A DNA stretch of 52,984 nucleotides, from IMG/VR virus record IMGVR_UViG_3300031885_000019, positions 1 through 52,984 of that record; one strand, written 5' to 3'. The translations under genes were made by a program, and so were the position numbers. Positions 2,184 to 39,403 of this stretch are shown here, one piece after another (positions within the stretch are counted from its first letter, which is position 1; each line of letters starts with the position of its first letter). The notes under the pieces are model-generated. The model saw only the letters and a list, made by a program, of their open reading frames with translations, ran no database searches and was not told the DNA's origin. This DNA comes from a virus. Taxonomy: Duplodnaviria > Caudoviricetes.

Positions 2184-3358
2184 TCTCCCTTTCCTCCTAT
2201 GACCTCTAGGTGGCGGACCTCTTCTGCGGTCGCCAAATGGATTCTGTGATGGTGCGTCTTTCCATACTTCGGGTGCAGGAACAGGAGTTCCTGGCTGGGT
2301 AGTCCGGCCTCTGGCCGGGACCGCTCGATAGCAAGCAGAGATGGTCCAACGAAGCACCCGTTCTGGATGACCTCGCCCTGGATCTCCTTCTCTGCGGCCT
2401 GCGGCTCGTGGTGATGTCCCTGGAAGTAGTAGTGGATGATCTCGCCCATCAGTGAGTTCATCCGTAGCTTCACGTCGAAGGCACCTGTGTACGTCCGCAT
2501 CAGGTCGCCGACGCCGGAGCCGTGGCGCCCAACGCAAAGCCAGTTGAAGATGCGGACAGCCGTAAAGAAAGATCGGTGGATGTGCAGGTCGATGAGGCCG
2601 CCCTCCAGGGAGTGAATCCCATTGGCGGTCTCTTTCCACTCACCGCCCGCCGCATTCCGCAGGCGCTCGCCGATGATCTCCCAGGCGAACAACTCGGCAT
2701 TGTCCGGCGTGTAGGCTTCCCTAGCACGACTGGCCAGGCGCCCGTGGTTGCCCGGCACCTTGTAGATGACAACCTTCTTGTAGCGGGTTAGGAAGCCGAG
2801 GAGGATGTTGGTCATGTCCTCCACGAAACCCATCACCTGGAAGAGTATGGGCTCCGACATCTGAAGGGCCTGCGTTGGGAACATTCGCCCGGTCCCTTCC
2901 AGTTCATCACCCAGGGCAAAGAGGTGGAGGGTATCGACGGAGAAGATGAGTTGGCTCATCTGCGTGAATCGCAACAGTCCGTCACGCCACCGTGCCAGCC
3001 GCTCGCGGGCGATGTCGATGTTGTATTCTCCGAGACCACCAGTAACTCGGCGATCTATTTTCGAGTGATAATGCAAGTCCGAGAAGAGTGCCACCGCCTG
3101 TTGGAGGGAGTCGAAGCCCATCTCCTCGATGCGGGTGGCACGTACCTTGTCTGGTATGGGGGGAATGGGGGACCGCGCCTGGAGAAATCCAGACAGGCGC
3201 TCCAGTTGCTCCGCGGACAGATCTACCTTGGGGTCGGACGGCTTGTCGCTTGCGCGACCGCCCGGATGCTTGGGACAATACTTGACGTTGGAGTTTGGGT
3301 TTGGCGGGGCGAAAATATCGCCACAGCCAGGGAACTGGCAGGGTCGTTCCCCACGCAC
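2180..3358 (-). CDS. Calcineurin-like metallophosphoesterase with N-terminal Cys/His finger
   Basis: SDLH, GDELEG, GNHG, RHG and GHHH motifs; N-terminal CQFPGC...CPKH; RBS GAAGGGAGAGAG. Confidence 0.8.
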   Translation of the reverse strand: MRGERPCQFPGCGDIFAPPNPNSNVKYCPKHPGGRASDKPSDPKVDLSAEQLERLSGFLQARSPIPPIPDKVRATRIEEMGFDSLQQAVALFSDLHYHSKIDRRVTGGLGEYNIDIARERLARWRDGLLRFTQMSQLIFSVDTLHLFALGDELEGTGRMFPTQALQMSEPILFQVMGFVEDMTNILLGFLTRYKKVVIYKVPGNHGRLASRAREAYTPDNAELFAWEIIGERLRNAAGGEWKETANGIHSLEGGLIDLHIHRSFFTAVRIFNWLCVGRHGSGVGDLMRTYTGAFDVKLRMNSLMGEIIHYYFQGHHHEPQAAEKEIQGEVIQNGCFVGPSLLAIERSRPEAGLPSQELLFLHPKYGKTHHHRIHLATAEEVRHLEVIGGKGE

Positions 3359-3445
3359 GGGCTCTCTCCCTTCGGGGTTTAGGGCTCAGGGGATTCGCCG
3401 TCCGCCTGGGCTCCTCTTACACTTTCAGGATAGCATGTTCCGCTG

Positions 3446-6241
3446 CTACTGGTCTTCCCCTTCTTCTTTCCGCAGGTCGAGGATGTCTCCCCGCGCCGTC
3501 AACTTGTAGATCGGGTCGCCCCACGTCTTTCCCCAAGAGATTTCGACGGGAATAGACCACCCCAATCGGGAACCATCGGGCAGGATCAAGGTCAGGGCTG
3601 TTTGCTCCCACAGGTGCTTGATGATCCTGGCGGTCTCCTCAGCGTAGGCGTGGTCAGGCCAGTAGAACTCGAACGTGATGGAGTCGTGGACCGAGATCAC
3701 AGGGTAACACTGCCGCTTCTTCAGCACGGGTGCGTTCTCTGTGAGGTTGTGCGCCACGCTGTGCAGTGTTGAGCAACCTGACTGGATGGGATAGTTGATG
3801 CCCTCGCGTATAAGCGCCTCCAGATCGTTGAACCGCCGCATGGCCTTGAGAAGTGACGCCGCCGGGAAGTGGCGCCGCTGGCCGAAGACGTTATCTCTAT
3901 GGCCCAGTTCAATCACGTCTCTCCGCGCCTGGGCGAAGTAGGTAGGCAGGCCGGCCACGACCTGCATATAGCGGGCCCGGATCTCCTGGGCGTCCTCTAG
4001 ACTGCACTCCAGGCGGTCCGCGATCCCCTCATCCGTGAGGCCGTACCCGATTCCGAACACAAGCGTCTTTGCCTTACGCCGGAGTTCGGGGTGTGTTTCC
4101 TTCCACTCGAAATCCGTCATCTCCGGGTCAACCGGCCAGATGGCGCGGCCAATGTAGGTGTGGACATCCTGCCCACTGGCGAGTACCTTCAGCAGTCCAT
4201 CATCTCCCGCTGTGTACGCCAGTCCCCAAACCTCGGCTTGGCTCCAGTCAGCGGTCATAAGACCGAACCCCTCCGGAGATGTGAATGTCCGGCAAAAGGC
4301 GTCCTTGGTCCCGAACTCCGGGATCTCCACGTTGGCTGGGACGTTCTGCATATTCGGTTCGGCCGAAGATAGGCGACTGGTCTCGGCACCACCCGGCCGG
4401 TAGGTACTGCGGATACGGTTGTCTGACTCGATGTAACGGGCAATGCCACCCGTGCCATCCTTCCCGTCGAGGTAGGTTCCCTTCGCCTTCCTTAGTTCCT
4501 TGAGTTCTATCAGGATGGGAAGGATGGGGTGGTCAACTTGGGCACGGACGGCAACCAGGGCGTCCGCCCCAGTCTGGTCGTGCTCGAAGCAGAGTCCAAC
4601 ATCGCAGGCCTCACAGCCGCGGCCACCATCCGTCTTGAAGCCGCTGCGCGGTAGTCCTAGTTCCTCGAAGAGGATGTGCTGGAGGTTCCTGTGGTACATG
4701 TAGTTCCAGGGTGGCTTGGTGTCGGGCAAGGGAATGGCCCAGAGCCGCGCCTCTGCATCCGCGATGCGCTGTGTGTAGTGGGCGCAGAGTTTCTCGAAGT
4801 AGTCCGTGTCCACGAGGACGCCGCGCTTCTCCATCTCCCAGCAGCAACGAACAAGAGGCTGAATGATGGCTTCTGACGCCCAGTGTGTGCCCTCGGCATC
4901 GGCCTTTGCCCGCAGGACTGGGACCACCCGCTCCACGGCATCCGCGTCAGCCGCGCTGTACTTCCAGAGCACGTCGTCCGGTGCCTCCGCCATCTTTCGC
5001 TTGTTGCTACTGACGGCGTTGATCTCTGCCTCGTAGTACGGCATCGGGGGGTTGGCGTAATGGGCCGTCAGGATGGAGAGACTGTGCCGCTTGGTCTTCC
5101 GTGCCTCCGGGGGCATGGCGGTCTCCGCTACCGCGTGGTGCAGCAGCATGGTGTCTTCGATCTGGCCCTTGACCTCTATGCCGAAAGCAGTGGCAGCCGT
5201 CACAAAGGGCCAGTCCGGGCGCCGTTCTAGGAACCGAAGGTCGAAGATGGCGTTCTGCCCCACCTTTTTCTTGTTGCTGCCGAAGATCTCCTTTAGGATG
5301 GCGATTACCTGCGGCCATTCGTCATCCGCCCAGTGGGAGTCAACCTCAGACTTCGGCACCTCCACGAGATAGGGCGGACCCGTAGGACGTGTGGACATGA
5401 AGCGGATTTCGGCCGTTGTCTTCGGGGGGCGCTTCTCTGCCAGCAGATTCTTTGCTATTCCCGGACTGATCTCCACAATGTCCGGTGCCACCCGCTGGTG
5501 TGATAGGAGTGGAACCACGAACCCCTCGCCGGGTTCGGTTGAGAAACTGATGCAGAGCAACTCGCCATGCCGCCAGTCGAGGCCCGTAGTCTCGGTGTCG
5601 AAGGCTATCTCCTTCGTATCGGGATGGAGTAGGTAGTCTCTAAGGTCGGTGAGTTGGGCCAGTGTGGTGACGGCGGAGTAGTCACCAAGGCGGGGCTGGC
5701 CCAGCTCTCCCGACGCTATGCGGAGGGCCTTCTCGAAGTGGGCCTGCACGGTGTCGGCAACGTGCCATTGGCCGCGCAACAAGAAGGCCGGATGGTAACT
5801 GGGAATGAATGGGATCCCTGTCTCTGGCTGAGTGAGGGTCTGGCCCAGGACCGAACTCAGGGCCACGGTCTGGCCGTAGACGCTTTGCAGGGCGACATCC
5901 CCCAGAGCTACGAGGACTAGCGGGGCCACCTTCTGGATCTCTTCGATGAGGTATGGGCGGCAGGCCCGTACCTCGGCCACTGTTGGGCGCCGGTTCCCCG
6001 GACTATGGCAACGGGTCGCGTTCATAAGATAGACGCTCTGTGGTGAGATGCCCGCCATCTCACAGAGTAGCCGGAGTAGTTGTCCACTCTGCCCCACGAA
6101 GGCCTTGCCCTGGGCGTCTTCCTCTTCACCGGGCCCTAACCCTACGAACATAATGCCGCCGGGTGTTCCCCGGCCGCCGACGATGTTCTTTCGGCAGCGG
6201 GCCAAAGCGGGACAGAGGCTACAGTCTGGCGGGGGAGGCAC
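3446..6241 (-). CDS. polA: Family A DNA polymerase with N-terminal uracil-DNA glycosylase (family 4/5-like) and 3'-5' exonuclease
   Basis: UDG: CSLC, FVGLGPGEEED..GKAFVG, NATRC, YHPA. Exo: FDTETTG, QNAIFD, YSAADAD. Pol: DWSQAE (A), RRKAKTLVFGIGYG (B), VHDSI (C). Confidence 0.95.
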   Translation of the reverse strand: MPPPPDCSLCPALARCRKNIVGGRGTPGGIMFVGLGPGEEEDAQGKAFVGQSGQLLRLLCEMAGISPQSVYLMNATRCHSPGNRRPTVAEVRACRPYLIEEIQKVAPLVLVALGDVALQSVYGQTVALSSVLGQTLTQPETGIPFIPSYHPAFLLRGQWHVADTVQAHFEKALRIASGELGQPRLGDYSAVTTLAQLTDLRDYLLHPDTKEIAFDTETTGLDWRHGELLCISFSTEPGEGFVVPLLSHQRVAPDIVEISPGIAKNLLAEKRPPKTTAEIRFMSTRPTGPPYLVEVPKSEVDSHWADDEWPQVIAILKEIFGSNKKKVGQNAIFDLRFLERRPDWPFVTAATAFGIEVKGQIEDTMLLHHAVAETAMPPEARKTKRHSLSILTAHYANPPMPYYEAEINAVSSNKRKMAEAPDDVLWKYSAADADAVERVVPVLRAKADAEGTHWASEAIIQPLVRCCWEMEKRGVLVDTDYFEKLCAHYTQRIADAEARLWAIPLPDTKPPWNYMYHRNLQHILFEELGLPRSGFKTDGGRGCEACDVGLCFEHDQTGADALVAVRAQVDHPILPILIELKELRKAKGTYLDGKDGTGGIARYIESDNRIRSTYRPGGAETSRLSSAEPNMQNVPANVEIPEFGTKDAFCRTFTSPEGFGLMTADWSQAEVWGLAYTAGDDGLLKVLASGQDVHTYIGRAIWPVDPEMTDFEWKETHPELRRKAKTLVFGIGYGLTDEGIADRLECSLEDAQEIRARYMQVVAGLPTYFAQARRDVIELGHRDNVFGQRRHFPAASLLKAMRRFNDLEALIREGINYPIQSGCSTLHSVAHNLTENAPVLKKRQCYPVISVHDSITFEFYWPDHAYAEETARIIKHLWEQTALTLILPDGSRLGWSIPVEISWGKTWGDPIYKLTARGDILDLRKEEGEDQ

Positions 6242-19162: not shown

Positions 19163-19489
19163 TTAAACATCCTCCACCTGTTGCTCCTGGCACATCTCGG
19201 CGAGCCTTTTCATCAGGACACGTACAAGGCCTATTTGCGCCTGAACACTACCCACGAGTATCAGGAGGTTGTTGGCTGGCTTGCCGTCGGGGGTCAGTAT
19301 CATGGCGTCGTCCTCCACCATGATCCCGAACACCATTCCCAGCACCTTCGCCGGATGTGGCAGTACCTCGGCGAGGGCGGCCTGAATAGACTCCACTGCC
19401 CTCTTCTCATTGATCCCCAGATCGTCCAGGGGGATGTCTCTCTTGAACTCCTGGTATGTGGGATCGCCATTGTTGCCTATCCCATCCAT
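19163..19489 (-). CDS. Hypothetical protein
   Basis: Overlaps the helicase stop; RBS AGAGGAG. Confidence 0.6.
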   Translation of the reverse strand: MDGIGNNGDPTYQEFKRDIPLDDLGINEKRAVESIQAALAEVLPHPAKVLGMVFGIMVEDDAMILTPDGKPANNLLILVGSVQAQIGLVRVLMKRLAEMCQEQQVEDV

Positions 19490-21807
19490 TGTTCGATCTC
19501 CTCTGTCTTTACTTCGGCCACTTGGTACGCCTTCTCCCGTTCGTATGTGCGGCGTCTGGAACGATACTGGCGTCCCAAGTAGAAGCCAGCATCGATGAAA
19601 TCGAATACCGTCAGTCTATCCTTCCCCGGTGAGGCACGCATCCCGCGGCCCACCCGCTGGATGACACGGTGCGGTGCTCGACCACCACCGGCTAGGATGA
19701 GGTGTTCGATGTTGCAAATGTCCAGGCCTTCGTCCGCTATCACTGAAGCTACGACGCAATCTAGGTGCCCTTGCCTCATGTCCTCCCAAATGTCCACACG
19801 TTTGTCGCCCGGCGTGGAGCCGGATGCAAAGGGAACACCGAGCGCATCAGCCAGCAGTTGCCCGTGCTCAATCCTCTCTACGAGGATGAGCGTCGAGCCT
19901 ACCTTACGTAGGGCCTGGACGATAAGAATGATCGTATCATTGCGTACCTGATGTTTCGTAATCCCACTTTCGTAGGCGGTTTGATAGTCGAGGTCGATGG
20001 GTTTCCGGCCAGAGAGTGGACCGACGAGGAAGATGTCGGCTGGCACCAAGCGCCCAGCCTTGATTCCCCCTTCACTTGGCAGGTATGACACCACCGGCCC
20101 CGTCCATGCCATCACGTTCAGGTAGGTGCCTTTGTCCCCACTCTTCGTGGGCGTGGCTGAGTAACCAAAGCGGAAGTACGCTGCTGAAAGGTGTTGCATC
20201 ACGTACTCGTAGGTGTCCGCCCCAACGTGATGGCAGTTGTGGACTAGGACTCCCTCGGCGAAGTAGTTGTGGTTGTCAGCAGTTTCCAAGTCGTAGACAA
20301 CACCATTTGGGCACAGGCCAGTGTGTCGTCCATTGCCTGTTGGTTGGTAAATCTCAACAGAGTCCACCCTTGCGATTCTAAGAAGTGTTCCTTCTTTCGA
20401 TCCCGTTCTTGTTGAATCAGGCGGGCATGTGATCCCCCGTCTATCTCGACGCCCAGGGGCAACCACGGGTGGGCTATGTCGATTTTGTAGTGGCTGGGTA
20501 TTCCTTTCCGGCGCCCCTCCCCTGTCCTTGTCCGGCTGCCGCCAGTCGAAACAGTGACCTCCATCGGCCAGCCGAGAAGTAGGGCCAACCGTTCTTGCGG
20601 GATCGGCGGAGGTCTTCCGTTCCCGCTGCGCAGTATCGGCTTGTGGCCTCGCCGTTTGTGGGTCTCCGATACTTTCTGGCGTATTTCGGGGCGGCGCATC
20701 GGATTGCGCTCTCGCATCCGCGCCGACGCATACAACCTGTTGGTCTGCGCCATTGTCACCGAGGAAATCTCGGCCCGCCGTTTTTGGGAACAGGGACGGC
20801 ATAACGGATAGCCTCTTAGTTTGTCGCGATCCCTCTGGCCCTTCGTGGCTAGGTATTTGCTCCCGCAGGCAGAGCAGTTCTGCTCCTTGAGTGGCGGCGG
20901 CATAGTGGCCAAGGTCATTCCTCCAAACTCGGTGGTCTGCTGTGCTTTTATATGATGCTCTTCCACCACTATGATACACAGTCACAAGGTTTTGGTCAAG
21001 CTGTTGCTGAATATGCCGGATCACAGGTTTCCATTCTGTTTGACCCGACCGATGATCATAGGTCAGTGCCTCTTCTCCTGGGGTCACACATTCAATAGGA
21101 ACCCAGCCGCGACGCATCCGAATCCGTGTACCGGCGGGGAAGCACTCATCCACATGAACCGCTCGGAATTGGCGCAACCACTCAGCCGTTTCCTTGTTGG
21201 TCTCTCGGTTTACCAGCCGGGAGTAGATCGTTTGGAACGTGGCGACGGTTAGTCCCTCCCCGTCTTCCCACCGGCCGTCGCCAACGATTCCCGCCTTGAT
21301 GTGGTAGATATCGCGTGCTCGCTCGGCTAACTGGTAGAGGAGGTCTTTCCGGTGAACAAGGGCGAGGGCGGGCACCCCCAGACGCCTTGTTATTTCGAGT
21401 AACACTATTGTCTTGCCCGATCCGACGGGATGGTGGATGATTCCTCTACCCGTGGCGCAGGCGGCGCCCGCAGCCTCTTCCTGGTAGGTCTTGAGTTTGA
21501 GGGTTGGCAGCGATGGGAATAGACCCGGATCTCCCACTGGGCGGGTGCGCCTATCCTCGATGCTGGCTTGGATGCCGCTGACCTTCAGGCTCTCGACCAC
21601 GTGGCCCACCAGCCCGACCGGGAACCGTCCGTCCTTCTTCACCAAGCAAATTGTTCCATCCCAGTAGCCCATCTTGTAGGCGTTGGAAAAAATGTAGCCT
21701 TTTTGGGTATAGGTAAGGGCGTCCCGGACAAGTGCCCGCACTCCCGGCGGGCCGCTGTCCGTACTGGCCCAGAGGTTGTCCTCGATGACGATGGTGCAGT
21801 CCATCAC
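19477..21807 (-). CDS. SF2 DExH helicase (UvsW/XPB-like) precursor containing an intein
   Basis: PVGSGKT, DE|CHH split by the intein, YSATP, EGLD, QRVGRGMR; 473 aa after removing the intein. Confidence 0.92.
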   Translation of the reverse strand: MMDCTIVIEDNLWASTDSGPPGVRALVRDALTYTQKGYIFSNAYKMGYWDGTICLVKKDGRFPVGLVGHVVESLKVSGIQASIEDRRTRPVGDPGLFPSLPTLKLKTYQEEAAGAACATGRGIIHHPVGSGKTIVLLEITRRLGVPALALVHRKDLLYQLAERARDIYHIKAGIVGDGRWEDGEGLTVATFQTIYSRLVNRETNKETAEWLRQFRAVHVDECFPAGTRIRMRRGWVPIECVTPGEEALTYDHRSGQTEWKPVIRHIQQQLDQNLVTVYHSGGRASYKSTADHRVWRNDLGHYAAATQGAELLCLREQIPSHEGPEGSRQTKRLSVMPSLFPKTAGRDFLGDNGADQQVVCVGADARAQSDAPPRNTPESIGDPQTARPQADTAQRERKTSADPARTVGPTSRLADGGHCFDWRQPDKDRGGAPERNTQPLQNRHSPPVVAPGRRDRRGITCPPDSTRTGSKEGTLLRIARVDSVEIYQPTGNGRHTGLCPNGVVYDLETADNHNYFAEGVLVHNCHHVGADTYEYVMQHLSAAYFRFGYSATPTKSGDKGTYLNVMAWTGPVVSYLPSEGGIKAGRLVPADIFLVGPLSGRKPIDLDYQTAYESGITKHQVRNDTIILIVQALRKVGSTLILVERIEHGQLLADALGVPFASGSTPGDKRVDIWEDMRQGHLDCVVASVIADEGLDICNIEHLILAGGGRAPHRVIQRVGRGMRASPGKDRLTVFDFIDAGFYLGRQYRSRRRTYEREKAYQVAEVKTEEIEQWMG
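20244..20918 (-). CDS. DUF559/Vsr-like endonuclease encoded out of frame inside the intein
   Basis: CSAC...CRPC, NUMOD3-like NPMRRPEIRQKVSETHK, IDIA...VEIDGGSH...RDRKKE.FL..QGWTLLRFTN; GGAGG at 20920-20924; start ATG 20918, TTG 20912 or ATG 20903. Confidence 0.88.
   Translation of the reverse strand: MTLATMPPPLKEQNCSACGSKYLATKGQRDRDKLRGYPLCRPCSQKRRAEISSVTMAQTNRLYASARMRERNPMRRPEIRQKVSETHKRRGHKPILRSGNGRPPPIPQERLALLLGWPMEVTVSTGGSRTRTGEGRRKGIPSHYKIDIAHPWLPLGVEIDGGSHARLIQQERDRKKEHFLESQGWTLLRFTNQQAMDDTLACAQMVLSTTWKLLTTTTTSPRES
20971..20999 (-). promoter_or_regulatory. Internal promoter inside the intein, upstream of the nested endonuclease
   Basis: TTGACC-17 nt-TATCAT in a locally AT-rich patch. 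Confidence 0.65.
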
Positions 21808-22079
21808 TCGACGGGGAGTCCGCGCCAGACACCATTGCCCAGCGACCGCATCGGATGGGTTCCGTTGGCGCAGTAACCTACGTGTTGAACCCTAATCGGG
21901 TTACTTGCTACTACCCAAGGCAATCCGAGTGCGTCTCCTGCTTTGATAACGGCACTCACTTCGTCTTGGGCGAGCACGTCACACCAGGCATACTCCCGCC
22001 CTGTGGTGGTGCGCCTGTCCAGGTAGAGACGGAATGTATGCTGTACAACTTTGCTATGGGTAATCCTTGTGCAACTCAC
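21804..22079 (-). CDS. Hypothetical protein
   Basis: GTGA overlaps on both sides; RBS GGAGGAGG. Confidence 0.55.
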   Translation of the reverse strand: MSCTRITHSKVVQHTFRLYLDRRTTTGREYAWCDVLAQDEVSAVIKAGDALGLPWVVASNPIRVQHVGYCANGTHPMRSLGNGVWRGLPVE

Positions 22080-36993: not shown

Positions 36994-37392
36994 ATGACTA
37001 CTAAGGGTTGCCGGTGGGCTTGTAAGAATCGTGTATCCACTGCGAGACGGATGACTGCGGTCGAAGCGGCTTGGGTGGGTGCAATGATCGAGGGTGAGGG
37101 CCACATCGGTTTGCGTAGCCGCGGCGAGGGTTATACGCCTGCCGCCAATTTCTGTGTGACCAACACTTCGATAGAGATCCTATCTACCCTTCTCCGACTT
37201 ACTGGTGTGGGGAGGATATATTTCTGTCCAGATCGGCGGCCAGATAAACTGGGTCATCTTCCTGTCTGGCGGTGGCACATTGTCCGCAAGGAGGACATGG
37301 TGGCCGTCGGGGAACAGATTAGGCCCTATCTGGTAGATAAGCGCGAGCATCTTGACTGCGTATTGGAGCAAGTTAGCGATGGCCATTCCTAG
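36994..37392 (+). CDS. Free-standing single-motif LAGLIDADG endonuclease
   Basis: AAWVGAMIEGEG, VTNT, IRPYLVDK. Confidence 0.75.
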   Translation: MTTKGCRWACKNRVSTARRMTAVEAAWVGAMIEGEGHIGLRSRGEGYTPAANFCVTNTSIEILSTLLRLTGVGRIYFCPDRRPDKLGHLPVWRWHIVRKEDMVAVGEQIRPYLVDKREHLDCVLEQVSDGHS

Positions 37393-39403
37393 AAGTGCGC
37401 TGTTGAACAAGAAGGACGCAGAACAACTGCGCCAGAGCATTACCACAAAGTTAGTCTATGGTAAAAGGTTCTGGTCCCCATTGCATGTACGTCAAGATTA
37501 CTGGAGCGCAATGTATTTCCTCCTAGACGTAATACAACAGTACAAGCCTATCGGATACAGAAGGTTCATCAGCAACGAACCCCGGACGGCACTGGACGCA
37601 GCCCAGTCTATCCTGACCCGCAACGAGTCCTTCTGGCGCATCCCACTCAACGAAGCCACCGACGAGAATATGGATGAGCGTCGCCGGATCGGTAAGGTCG
37701 AGCGTACCCTCCAGGGTATCGTCTACGACGTGGATGAGAACTTCTCCATGCGCGGCCTCATGCCATTCTGGAAGCAGGTGGCTATGCAGGCCCTCCTCCG
37801 TGGTTGGATCTGGGGCAAGTTGCATGTCACCGACGAGGCCCTGAAGTACCGCGAAGCCCCCCTCATCGCTGAAGTCTACGACTCCCGTACCGTCTACCCG
37901 TACCTGGATGCGATGGGGATCAACTACGTCATCATCGAGAAGTCTACGACGATGGGCGACCTGGCGAGTCTCTACCCAGAATCCTACGGCGACGAATACA
38001 ATGATAAGAACTTCGACCCCAACCGACCCGCGGTCAAGTTTGAATACTGGTCCAACGATCGCGGGGAGATTCCCGGTGTGACTGGGGTGCTGGGATCGGC
38101 GGTTCCGACCTACCAGCTCTACAACCCCAACAACGTTCTGCCGTTGTCCTCGGCTAAGTGGCTCATCCCACCCTACAGGCATGGGTTTTCGCCGCAGGCG
38201 CTACCCGTCGTTGGTGTAGCCGTGAACGGGGTCAACGTCGTCACCAAGCCCTCGATTATGAACCTCGTTATGGACCGGAACCGAGAGAAGGCCCGCCTGA
38301 TGGGGCTAGGTGAGTATGGGGCTTTCTGGCAGTTGTCCAGCAACTCCTGGGTCTCCGAGTCGGGACGTTCCCTGCTGTCGGCAGTCGAGGAGCAGGTGCC
38401 ACAGTACAACGAACTCATTGCCACCATCTTCCATCACTTCAGCATCGGCACCTACGGCACCTGGATCTTCAAGACCCCATCCGGTGAACTACCGGAGTTC
38501 ACACCCGGCATCGAGGCGAAGGTCGCCATCCGCCCAGAGGAAGACCTGCGCCGGGCCGAGATGTCGCCGGTGACGCCGGATGCTTACAGGTTGGTGGCCA
38601 TCCTTGACAATGAACGGCAGAAGGGTGTCCTCTCTAACATCCTCCAAGCCGTCGTGCCCTTCCAGGGCAGTGGCATCATGTTCCAACAGGTGGCCAACGC
38701 CGCCCTCAATGCCCTGGAGCCTTTCCATGATGGCATGGAGAACTTCGGCACGCGGGCGGGTACGTCTATCCTGGCGCAGTTCCAGTCTGGGGGCACCTCA
38801 CTCAAGAAGTTTACTGTGACCGCCCCTGCGTCCGCGTCCATCGTTCGCCGCCAGACCTTCTTCAATGTCGAGTTTGACCCGGCCATCGATCTGGATCGCG
38901 GGCGCCGCTACCGTCCACGGCCGGTCTTCAAGCCGAGCCTGCCGGATGATATGTCCCTGCGCATCCAGGCGGCCCGGTTCGCCCTCGACCCGCGGCGCCC
39001 GGTCCTGAGTCTTATGACCGTCCTGGAGAACATCCTCCAGATAGACGATCCGGCGGCCGAGATCGACCGCATTTGGGAGGACATCGCCAACACCGACCCA
39101 GTGATCGTCCTGGAGCACGTCGCCCAGGCCTTGGAGCGCAGGCAGGAACATGACATGGCGGCCCGTATCCGCACCACCGAGTTCCGGGCGGCCTACGTTC
39201 AGGAGATGCAGTTCCGCCAGCAGACGGGCCAAACGCAGGCGTATGGCTCGCAGACAATGGCCATGCCGACCGGCAACACGACGATGCCCGCCGAGACCGG
39301 CGTTGCGGCGGCTACCCAGCACCCCGGCACCGGCCAGGGTCAGGCGGCAGAGGGTGTCGGTCCCGGTCTTATGGGGCAACTTGGTGAACGAGGGGCCGTG
39401 TGA
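37379..39403 (+). CDS. Portal protein (probable)
   Basis: Position after terL, ~670 aa, ALLRGW.W, low-complexity C-terminus; RBS GGAG before ATG 37379. Confidence 0.7.
   Translation: MAIPRSALLNKKDAEQLRQSITTKLVYGKRFWSPLHVRQDYWSAMYFLLDVIQQYKPIGYRRFISNEPRTALDAAQSILTRNESFWRIPLNEATDENMDERRRIGKVERTLQGIVYDVDENFSMRGLMPFWKQVAMQALLRGWIWGKLHVTDEALKYREAPLIAEVYDSRTVYPYLDAMGINYVIIEKSTTMGDLASLYPESYGDEYNDKNFDPNRPAVKFEYWSNDRGEIPGVTGVLGSAVPTYQLYNPNNVLPLSSAKWLIPPYRHGFSPQALPVVGVAVNGVNVVTKPSIMNLVMDRNREKARLMGLGEYGAFWQLSSNSWVSESGRSLLSAVEEQVPQYNELIATIFHHFSIGTYGTWIFKTPSGELPEFTPGIEAKVAIRPEEDLRRAEMSPVTPDAYRLVAILDNERQKGVLSNILQAVVPFQGSGIMFQQVANAALNALEPFHDGMENFGTRAGTSILAQFQSGGTSLKKFTVTAPASASIVRRQTFFNVEFDPAIDLDRGRRYRPRPVFKPSLPDDMSLRIQAARFALDPRRPVLSLMTVLENILQIDDPAAEIDRIWEDIANTDPVIVLEHVAQALERRQEHDMAARIRTTEFRAAYVQEMQFRQQTGQTQAYGSQTMAMPTGNTTMPAETGVAAATQHPGTGQGQAAEGVGPGLMGQLGERGAV

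Follow-up and report, generated by a model that had tools for sequence, protein, structure and literature searches.

Intein nucleases encoded outside the host frame are already in print as preprints. In actinophage genes for DNA polymerase, minor capsid protein, terminase and ThyX, Gosselin, Arsenault & Gogarten (bioRxiv 10.1101/2025.01.02.630785) describe antisense LAGLIDADG, antisense VSR-like and frame-3 endonuclease VII-like intein nucleases, and Phillips, DeSimone & Gogarten (bioRxiv 10.64898/2026.09.14.751524) describe a +2-frame LAGLIDADG nuclease in cyanobacterial dnaX with frame-specific selection; in the portions of text available, both preprints cite Gorbalenya 1998 for non-canonical inteins. 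The window analysed here, the whole 52,984-nucleotide (nt) stretch of the IMG/VR virus record IMGVR_UViG_3300031885_000019, carries on its minus strand a helicase gene interrupted by an intein. A sequence-only reading of this locus had set it against the rule that canonical inteins carry their nuclease in frame, which overlooks the published non-canonical inteins. We consider it quite probable that the element, seated in helicase motif II, is a dual-coding mobile intein, with a mini-intein in the host frame, a nuclease in the +1 frame of the same strand and homing in the manner proposed below.

Related arrangements are known from other phage genes, and the accounts given here follow the accessible parts of each source. 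In fractured genes, the two halves of a split intein flank a free-standing homing endonuclease of the Vsr-like family (Dassa et al. 2009, PMC2677866). I-Bth0305I, an EDxHD homing endonuclease, belongs to the recA group I intron of Bacillus phage 0305phi8-36 (Taylor et al. 2011, PMC3239194; PDB 3R3P), and ShiLan-type out-of-frame HNH insertions have been described in phage methylases (PMC11855218).

Intein in the helicase frame

The helicase precursor and its parts are listed below with positions counted from the first letter of the window (aa, amino acids; ORF, open reading frame; SF2, superfamily 2; pLDDT, predicted local distance difference test).

19477-21807, minus strand: helicase precursor ORF, SF2, UvsW-like, 776 aa, with UvsW_N, ResIII and Helicase_C; open throughout, coordinates including the stop codon
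21145-21807, minus strand: N-extein, aa 1-221, read from the sequence, its last residues (...HVDE) forming the first half of motif II
20236-21144, minus strand: class-1 intein in the helicase frame, 303 aa (aa 222-524), with CFPAGT (Cys1), TADH (TxxH) and ...VLVHN, then Cys+1
20851-21144, minus strand: Hint N-terminal half (intein aa 1-98), modelled with pLDDT >90 and overlapping the start of the nuclease ORF over the last ~22 codons
20383-20850, minus strand: host-frame linker, intein aa ~99-254, stop-free, predicted disordered, without a family match, its sequence shaped by the other frame
20236-20382, minus strand: Hint C-terminal half, intein aa 255-303, with blocks F and G, overlapping the last ~45 codons of the nuclease, both frames constrained
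19477-20235, minus strand: C-extein, beginning CHHVGAD (second half of motif II) and running through Helicase_C and the stop codon

The sequence-only reading held that the helicase frame stays open through a 303-aa intein with intact blocks A, B, F and G, and every one of these was located as claimed. The insertion point lies inside helicase motif II (DE/CHH, the slash marking the junction). Across 38 aligned host-frame inteins, the invariant residues are C1 and F2 of block A (Cys1 is C222, in CFPAGT), T68 and H71 of block B (TADH, fitting TxxH) and H302 and N303 of blocks F and G (VLVHN/C). Joining the exteins restores DE/CHH and yields 473 aa (776 minus 303), the extein length that had been expected. 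A profile search of both frames had been suggested, and each frame has a model above its cut-off, namely the C-terminal intein model for the host frame (NCBIfam TIGR01443, intein_Cterm, 31.2 bits vs 15.6) and DUF559 for the nuclease. Pfam matches to the intein ends fell below cut-off (Intein_splicing at aa 502-524 and Hint_2 at aa 222-261), and Pfam returned no nuclease family for the middle of the host-frame intein.

The AlphaFold model of the intein shows confident beta structure at residues 1-98 and 255-303 (pLDDT >90), separated by residues ~100-250 with pLDDT of ~45-60 and no secondary structure. Foldseek aligned the model to mini-inteins (Spl DnaX, the Mtu RecA splicing domain and Npu DnaB) with a template modelling (TM) score of ~0.8 across the gap and E values down to 5e-6. 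An intein middle of ~200 aa devoid of endonuclease motifs had been described; the absence of a nuclease match agrees with this, but the unstructured part is shorter, at ~155 aa. Taken as a whole, the blocks and the model support an intact class-1 mini-intein with a ~155-aa disordered linker, for which splicing is predicted. Helicase homologues without the intein also exist, as seen in two-piece tblastn matches against phage genomes and in the helicase of survey locus L096, whose motif II reads ITDESHHAL.

Nuclease in the +1 frame

The features of the overlapping gene are as follows.

20244-20969, minus strand: open stretch of the +1 frame, with TTG 20912, ATG 20903 and GTG 20969 as other candidate starts
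20244-20918, minus strand: nuclease gene, +1 frame, 224 aa from ATG 20918, stop at 20244-20246
20790-20876, minus strand: zinc-ribbon-like four-Cys module, with C15, C18, C40 and C43 (numbered from the ATG) conserved
20301-20513, minus strand: DUF559/Vsr-like (EDxHD-type) catalytic domain, with D147, E158, D160, H164 and D173 invariant in 46/46 aligned relatives

The proposal of an overlapping homing-type nuclease in the +1 frame of an intact intein is supported, the product matching Pfam DUF559 well above the gathering score (38.4 bits vs 20.6, E 1.2e-9). Its stop codon falls 8 nt before the intein end, and the dual-coding length is about 675 nt, close to the ~670 nt first estimated. As regards the modules read from the sequence (a zinc finger, a NUMOD3-like part and a DUF559/Vsr-like domain), the four cysteines and DUF559 were recovered but NUMOD3 was not, since Pfam NUMOD3 gave no match at E<=1; that region is helical in the structure model. 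In this model, built from 46 sequences (mean pLDDT 89.4), the Cys pairs sit on two beta hairpins, the middle is helical and the core is of alpha/beta type. The top Foldseek match was 3r3p, I-Bth0305I (probability 0.99, TM-score 0.61 on the target), and rank 4 was 3hrl, a DUF559 protein (probability 0.98, TM-score 0.66), which was also matched by the nuclease profile among PDB sequences (E 2.7e-10). On the profile alignment, we take D147, E158, D160, H164 and D173 to correspond to the EDxHD residues of I-Bth0305I.

Conservation of the frame offset across relatives

In tblastn searches of phage genomes, the nuclease fell within genes annotated as helicases, in Corynebacterium phage phi673, several Vibrio phages and Pseudomonas phage MR14. 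The +1 offset is present in four cultured phages (Corynebacterium phi673, Vibrio 104E43.1, Vibrio 1.088.O and Pseudomonas MR14), in each of which the helicase ORF reads DE/CF.AGT...VHN/CHH and no open stretch of the +1 frame is longer than the nuclease. Broader sampling relied on a five-sequence nuclease alignment with the window as reference row and relatives 38-46% identical to it. With this alignment, IMG/VR and one genome per GTDB species were scanned through two nuclease motifs, a procedure blind to the host frame; locus scans with a single protein query found no relatives, whereas the alignment-based scans succeeded. Six-frame scans confirmed 139 relatives in IMG/VR and 163 in GTDB genomes, and the best 80 of each were kept. 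Together with the window and loci L001-L004, the kept loci made up the survey set, in which 109 loci had a nuclease high-scoring segment pair of >=90 bits, representing 95 distinct nucleases.

Whether homologous inteins keep both frames free of stops had been posed as a test, and both are open in 84/95 distinct nucleases (98/109 loci), with the nuclease at +1 to a host ORF of 488-2041 codons that is open through the whole match. A nuclease in frame with its host or at +2 was found in 0/109 loci. The host frame was not open in the other 11/109 loci, comprising two that are truncated (L010 and L063, cut by the locus end and open up to there), five fractured genes and four without intein motifs (L042, L096, L097 and L102). 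Rfam gave no match on these last four, and no group I intron was thus detected in them.

A profile search of 1.84 billion representative proteins returned 885 clusters at E<=1e-30, and the top 150 matches were 147-329 aa long with the sole exception of P0075, at 496 aa. P0075 may be a real one-sided fusion variant or the product of an indel. No in-frame long form was scored among candidates of 423-2000 aa, which is weak evidence. A word-based search of 5.8 billion protein clusters yielded 44 near-length relatives. Since the protein search found 44 such relatives vs 139 + 163 six-frame loci, intein surveys may undercount homing endonucleases and misclass such elements as nuclease-less or unknown-domain inteins; the nested gene is mostly missed by gene callers.

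The survey also bears on the possibility of a sequencing or assembly artefact, in which two compensating indel errors disguise an ordinary in-frame intein nuclease, the refutation that the sequence-only reading had itself named. The window is a metagenome-derived viral contig, and P0075 shows an in-frame junction on the N-terminal side, both of which would suit such an error. However, the +1 offset recurs in 98/109 independently assembled loci, including the four cultured phage genomes, the nuclease frame has its own start codons and its own stop 8 nt before the intein end, and an in-frame form is represented among the top 150 profile matches only by P0075, the null result for 423-2000-aa candidates being of little weight here as well. 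Assembled reads agree: a 2348-nt contig of run X1 spans 19849-21900 with 0 differences, and a 1480-nt contig of run X2, from a different study, spans 19759-21237, and so the intein in full, at 120 substitutions and 0 gaps. All 40 of the 120 X2 substitutions that are listed fall in the C-extein. No indels are listed in any run, runs X3 and X4 covering small parts only. X1 may be the source sample of the record, whereas X2 is independent. The contigs of two studies cross the intein without gaps, the frame shift as an assembly artefact is effectively refuted, and we assign this explanation a practically negligible probability.

One X1 contig links 21633 directly to 21762, skipping 128 bases of the helicase N-terminal region; the shorter side of this link is only 25 letters, and the contig may derive from another organism or a variant.

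Selection on both frames

A stop in the host frame requires a nuclease codon ending in T followed by a codon beginning with AA, AG or GA. Synonymous codons were therefore swapped among positions with the same amino acid, which preserves both the protein and its codon composition. In the window, the host frame was stop-free in 0.001 of 2000 shuffles, with a mean of 4.9 stops; across the family, the shuffles had a mean of 2.6-17 host-frame stops (median 7.7), and the stop-free fraction was below 0.05 in 84/84 lineages. These 84 lineages were chosen for their open host frame, and the proper comparison is 84/95 open against ~0-5% expected. As the host frame is free of stops in 84 lineages where 2.6-17 would be expected, read-through is under selection.

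This result is relevant to the suggestion that the gene is functionally split, the read-through precursor being unproductive and the helicase arising by trans-splicing of separately made halves. Five relatives are truly fractured and have a conserved ATG for the C-terminal half, but the stop-free host frame of the 84 lineages speaks against such a scheme, as does the window itself, which holds no stop to end an N-terminal half. We judge a split gene highly improbable.

Substitutions were counted in ten pairs, each locus being used once, and expressed per site at host codon positions 1/2/3. The exteins show an ordinary wobble pattern (.204/.131/.453), whereas the overlap core shows.394/.162/.136, with the excess at host position 1, which is nuclease position 3 (chi-square 370, p 5e-81). 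In the Hint-C overlap, consisting of the last 45 codons, the values are.209/.116/.133 and both wobble positions are damped; here the nuclease core (GW..LRF.N and the last helix) lies over Hint blocks F and G. The frame under purifying selection, which the sequence-only reading had asked for, is the nuclease frame in the core and both frames at the Hint-C end. In the overlap core, it is the nuclease sequence that is conserved, the host peptide being only kept open, whereas at the ends both frames are constrained.

A different reading would make the nested ORF a silent or decaying relic, with the intein vertically inherited and the helicase frame alone of consequence. The homing-cycle model predicts decay of the nuclease once the element is fixed, which counts in its favour, as do the poor spacing of the Shine-Dalgarno (SD) motif to the ATG and a promoter-like site at chance level. 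Against these points, the ORF is intact, the window protein retains all five invariant catalytic positions and all four Cys, and substitutions in the family follow the nuclease-frame wobble. A relic would also gather stops in the +1 frame; the third frame already abounds in them and, among the rows listed, is open for at most 142 codons (3-142). A relic is on this evidence unlikely.

Mobility, fractured genes and free-standing relatives

In the locus pairs L071/L075 and L068/L075, intein divergence is about 1%, against extein divergence of 7.6% and 10.4%. This difference suggests recent transfer of the intein between related phages. The same module resides in other hosts, namely the terminase large subunits of L045 and L076, an SNF2 helicase fused to a methylase (L093) and a helicase-methylase fusion (L101), and the +1 offset is kept in all of these. 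The terminase large subunit at L045:3-2528 has two inteins, a LAGLIDADG-type intein at the fragment start followed by the +1-overprinted Vsr-like one. The sequence-only reading had proposed that a free-standing nuclease gene invaded a mini-intein; as a local event in this phage this does not hold, 84 lineages sharing the +1 offset and the module moving as a unit between helicases and terminases. The arrangement may have begun with an invasion or with a frameshift.

Fractured helicase genes occur at L055, L058, L062, L084 and L100, where stops follow Hint-N, the nuclease lies in the +1 frame and the host frame contains 19-35 stops over the nuclease span. In these five loci, a conserved ATG (MRQ...) starts the Hint-C half within the 3' end of the nuclease. 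The fractured loci come from AT-rich viral contigs and a Lutibacter metagenome-assembled genome.

A maximum-likelihood tree of 93 nucleases, obtained by quick search and left unrooted, grouped the five fractured genes in one clade (Shimodaira-Hasegawa-like approximate likelihood ratio test, 99) nested among overprinted forms, and placed the free-standing pair L096/L097 within a supported clade (96) of overprinted forms. At L096:2998-4927, the free-standing nuclease (2998-3639) overlaps by 26 nt the intein-less SF2 helicase (3614-4927), and the pair looks like a case of intron-less, intein-less homing beside the likely target gene. These patterns, from a tree without a root, suggest an old overprinted state, from which fractured and free-standing forms may have been derived. 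More broadly, we propose tentatively, and with slightly more doubt than conviction, that the +1-overprinted intein is ancestral and dominant in a whole clade of Vsr-like/EDxHD homing endonucleases, as a single dual-coding module whose host frame selection keeps open, that fractured genes and the free-standing nuclease genes next to helicases derive from it and that it moves between the nucleotide-binding sites of helicases and terminases in phages of many phyla. If so, the gene-breaking model of 2009 would be reversed or extended, and fractured split-intein genes would arise when the read-through frame decays.

Proposed mechanism and expression of the nested gene

In the mechanism that we favour, the helicase frame would supply a Hint N-half (~98 aa) and a Hint C-half (~49 aa) joined by a ~155-aa disordered linker, the sole requirement on which would be the absence of a stop codon, and the 776-aa precursor would splice to a 473-aa helicase. 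The +1 frame would encode the 224-aa nuclease, with its Zn ribbon, helical DNA-binding region and DUF559/Vsr-like domain of EDxHD type, translated from an internal start of its own on either the helicase mRNA or an internal transcript. The presumed targets of the nuclease are helicase alleles without the intein in co-infecting phages; on repair of such a cut, intein and nuclease would be copied together.

The candidate expression signals are as follows.

20920-20924, minus strand: GGAGG, SD-like motif, separated by 1 nt from ATG 20918 and by 7 nt from TTG 20912, a possible start in the same frame
20971-20999, minus strand: promoter-like TTGACC-17-TATCAT, 10/12 matches, candidate only

Several observations weigh against the dual-coding homing element as set out here. 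Both signals had been put forward as serving the nuclease and both are present, yet GGAGG as a ribosome-binding site is poorly spaced, the distance of 1 nt to ATG 20918 leaving the true start uncertain with TTG 20912 and ATG 20903 as alternatives, and the promoter-like site does not exceed chance (2 such sites per 4 kb vs 1.6 +/- 1.2 in shuffles). Among relatives, only 49/84 have an SD motif 3-11 nt ahead of a start, even on loose criteria. For the nuclease itself, the Foldseek E values are weak (0.024; 0.02-0.06 over the top matches), the profile match to 3r3p (I-Bth0305I) is marginal (E 0.04), and the window protein has no close relative, its best identity being 52%, to P0003. P0075, which joins N-extein and Hint-N in frame with the nuclease, indicates that fusions exist or arise easily. 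Lastly, selection is inferred from the family and not from the window's own lineage.

On the other side, SD-start spacing in relatives is 6-7 nt, which TTG 20912 fits. A start codon lies ahead of the first CxxC in 83/84 lineages, and the free-standing relatives begin just ahead of the same CxxC; because free-standing relatives start there and a start codon is present in 83/84, it is plausible that the nuclease uses its own translation start. In L002-L004, a GAGG motif 6 nt before the ATG is built from the codons of the conserved intein D-E-V(L) motif (L002:2507-2525, L003:2480-2497 and L004:2252-2269), and the translation signal of one gene there sits within conserved residues of the other. 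RNA structure near the nuclease start was unremarkable (z -0.37), with no hairpin like those reported upstream of fractured-gene nucleases.

For transcription, an internal promoter in the window is possible. Over the family, a promoter-like site lies within 200 nt before the CxxC in 23/86 loci vs 65/911 control windows (Fisher p 2e-7; 1e-4 after one clade was collapsed). The positions of these sites are not conserved, varying by more than 100 nt, and the enrichment may be partly due to the composition of the 5' part of the intein; it is not counted as evidence for a promoter in the window.

The nuclease could instead be made by a programmed +1 ribosomal frameshift and be fused to the N-extein and Hint-N. 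The two genes share a strand, their +1 offset is conserved, P0075 represents this kind of fusion at the DNA level, and the SD motif is weak or absent in 35/84 lineages. However, in L025, L027, L028, L036 and L057 the nuclease-frame ORF has no more than 4-6 codons ahead of the CxxC, leaving scant room for a shift site, and free-standing copies begin at the same place where 83/84 lineages have their start codon. In the sequences inspected, no slippery motif stood out as conserved, no dedicated motif scan having been run. We regard frameshifting as very unlikely and retain an internal start as the more plausible route to the nuclease.

The overprinting is extensive, with two proteins read from one strand over ~225 codons and structured parts overlapping at both ends (Hint-N with the Zn ribbon, and Hint-C with the nuclease core). 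As a missing state intermediate between mini-inteins, canonical inteins and fractured genes, the contiguous frame-shifted form is relevant to the origins of split inteins. In practical terms, the family would offer natural mini-inteins that presumably tolerate inserts of 150-250 aa, together with a set of putative site-specific nucleases for helicase and terminase motifs.

Genomic setting

The record is an uncultivated, metagenome-derived phage contig, linear, with an estimated completeness of 72% and ~60% G+C (52,984 bases in IMG/VR). The minus strand carries a phage replication module with a DNA polymerase, an exonuclease, a UvsX-like recombinase, a DnaB-like helicase, a primase and a methyltransferase. 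Three large plus-strand ORFs within the presumed structural module are without a PHROG match at E<=1e-5.

37352-39403, plus strand: ORF of 683 aa
39708-40721, plus strand: ORF of 337 aa
41315-45805, plus strand: ORF of 1496 aa

Comparison with known systems

The window family shares with the non-canonical inteins of the two preprints, as far as their available parts go, a nuclease ORF that lies between the splicing blocks but in a different frame, a stop-free host frame without a recognisable fold and a nuclease frame under purifying selection; one origin proposed there is that a free-standing nuclease gene invaded a mini-intein. It differs from them in being a sense-strand +1 Vsr-like/EDxHD form found mainly in SF2 helicase motif II, in its spread over 84 or more distinct lineages with hosts of many phyla, and in a nuclease that overlaps structured Hint at both ends. 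The literature searched yielded no account of a +1 Vsr-like nuclease on the sense strand of helicase inteins, although the supplementary tables of the 2025 preprint may list related cases.

In the accessible text on ShiLan-type insertions (PMC11855218), a nuclease ORF is likewise hidden in another frame of an insertion across which the host frame stays open, and GTG or internal starts are discussed for it. Unlike the window nuclease, that of the ShiLan type is HNH rather than Vsr-like, and the insert is described as having no surrounding intein splicing domain and is thought to be retained in the host protein as a loop. I-Bth0305I, the best structural match to the catalytic domain of the window nuclease, resembles it in its acidic/His motif pattern and in its modular plan, with an N-terminal DNA-binding part and a C-terminal Vsr-like core; it is, in contrast, described as intron-encoded and not overprinted on protein-coding sequence.

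The fractured genes of Dassa et al. (PMC2677866) have the same Vsr-like family (later EDxHD) at the same position within the intein, the same kind of host (phage DNA-metabolism genes, including helicases and terminase) and a nuclease 3' end that overlaps the C-terminal intein half. Five survey loci (L055, L058, L062, L084 and L100) match that arrangement, as described there, exactly, whereas in the window the host gene is unbroken and one ORF traverses the nuclease gene. The gene-breaking model, as given in the accessible parts of that paper, does not include a contiguous frame-shifted state, and the fractured forms found here make up one clade nested among contiguous ones. With out-of-frame intein nucleases already in print in the 2025-2026 preprints, the form described here is a new, large and unusually widespread variant of them.

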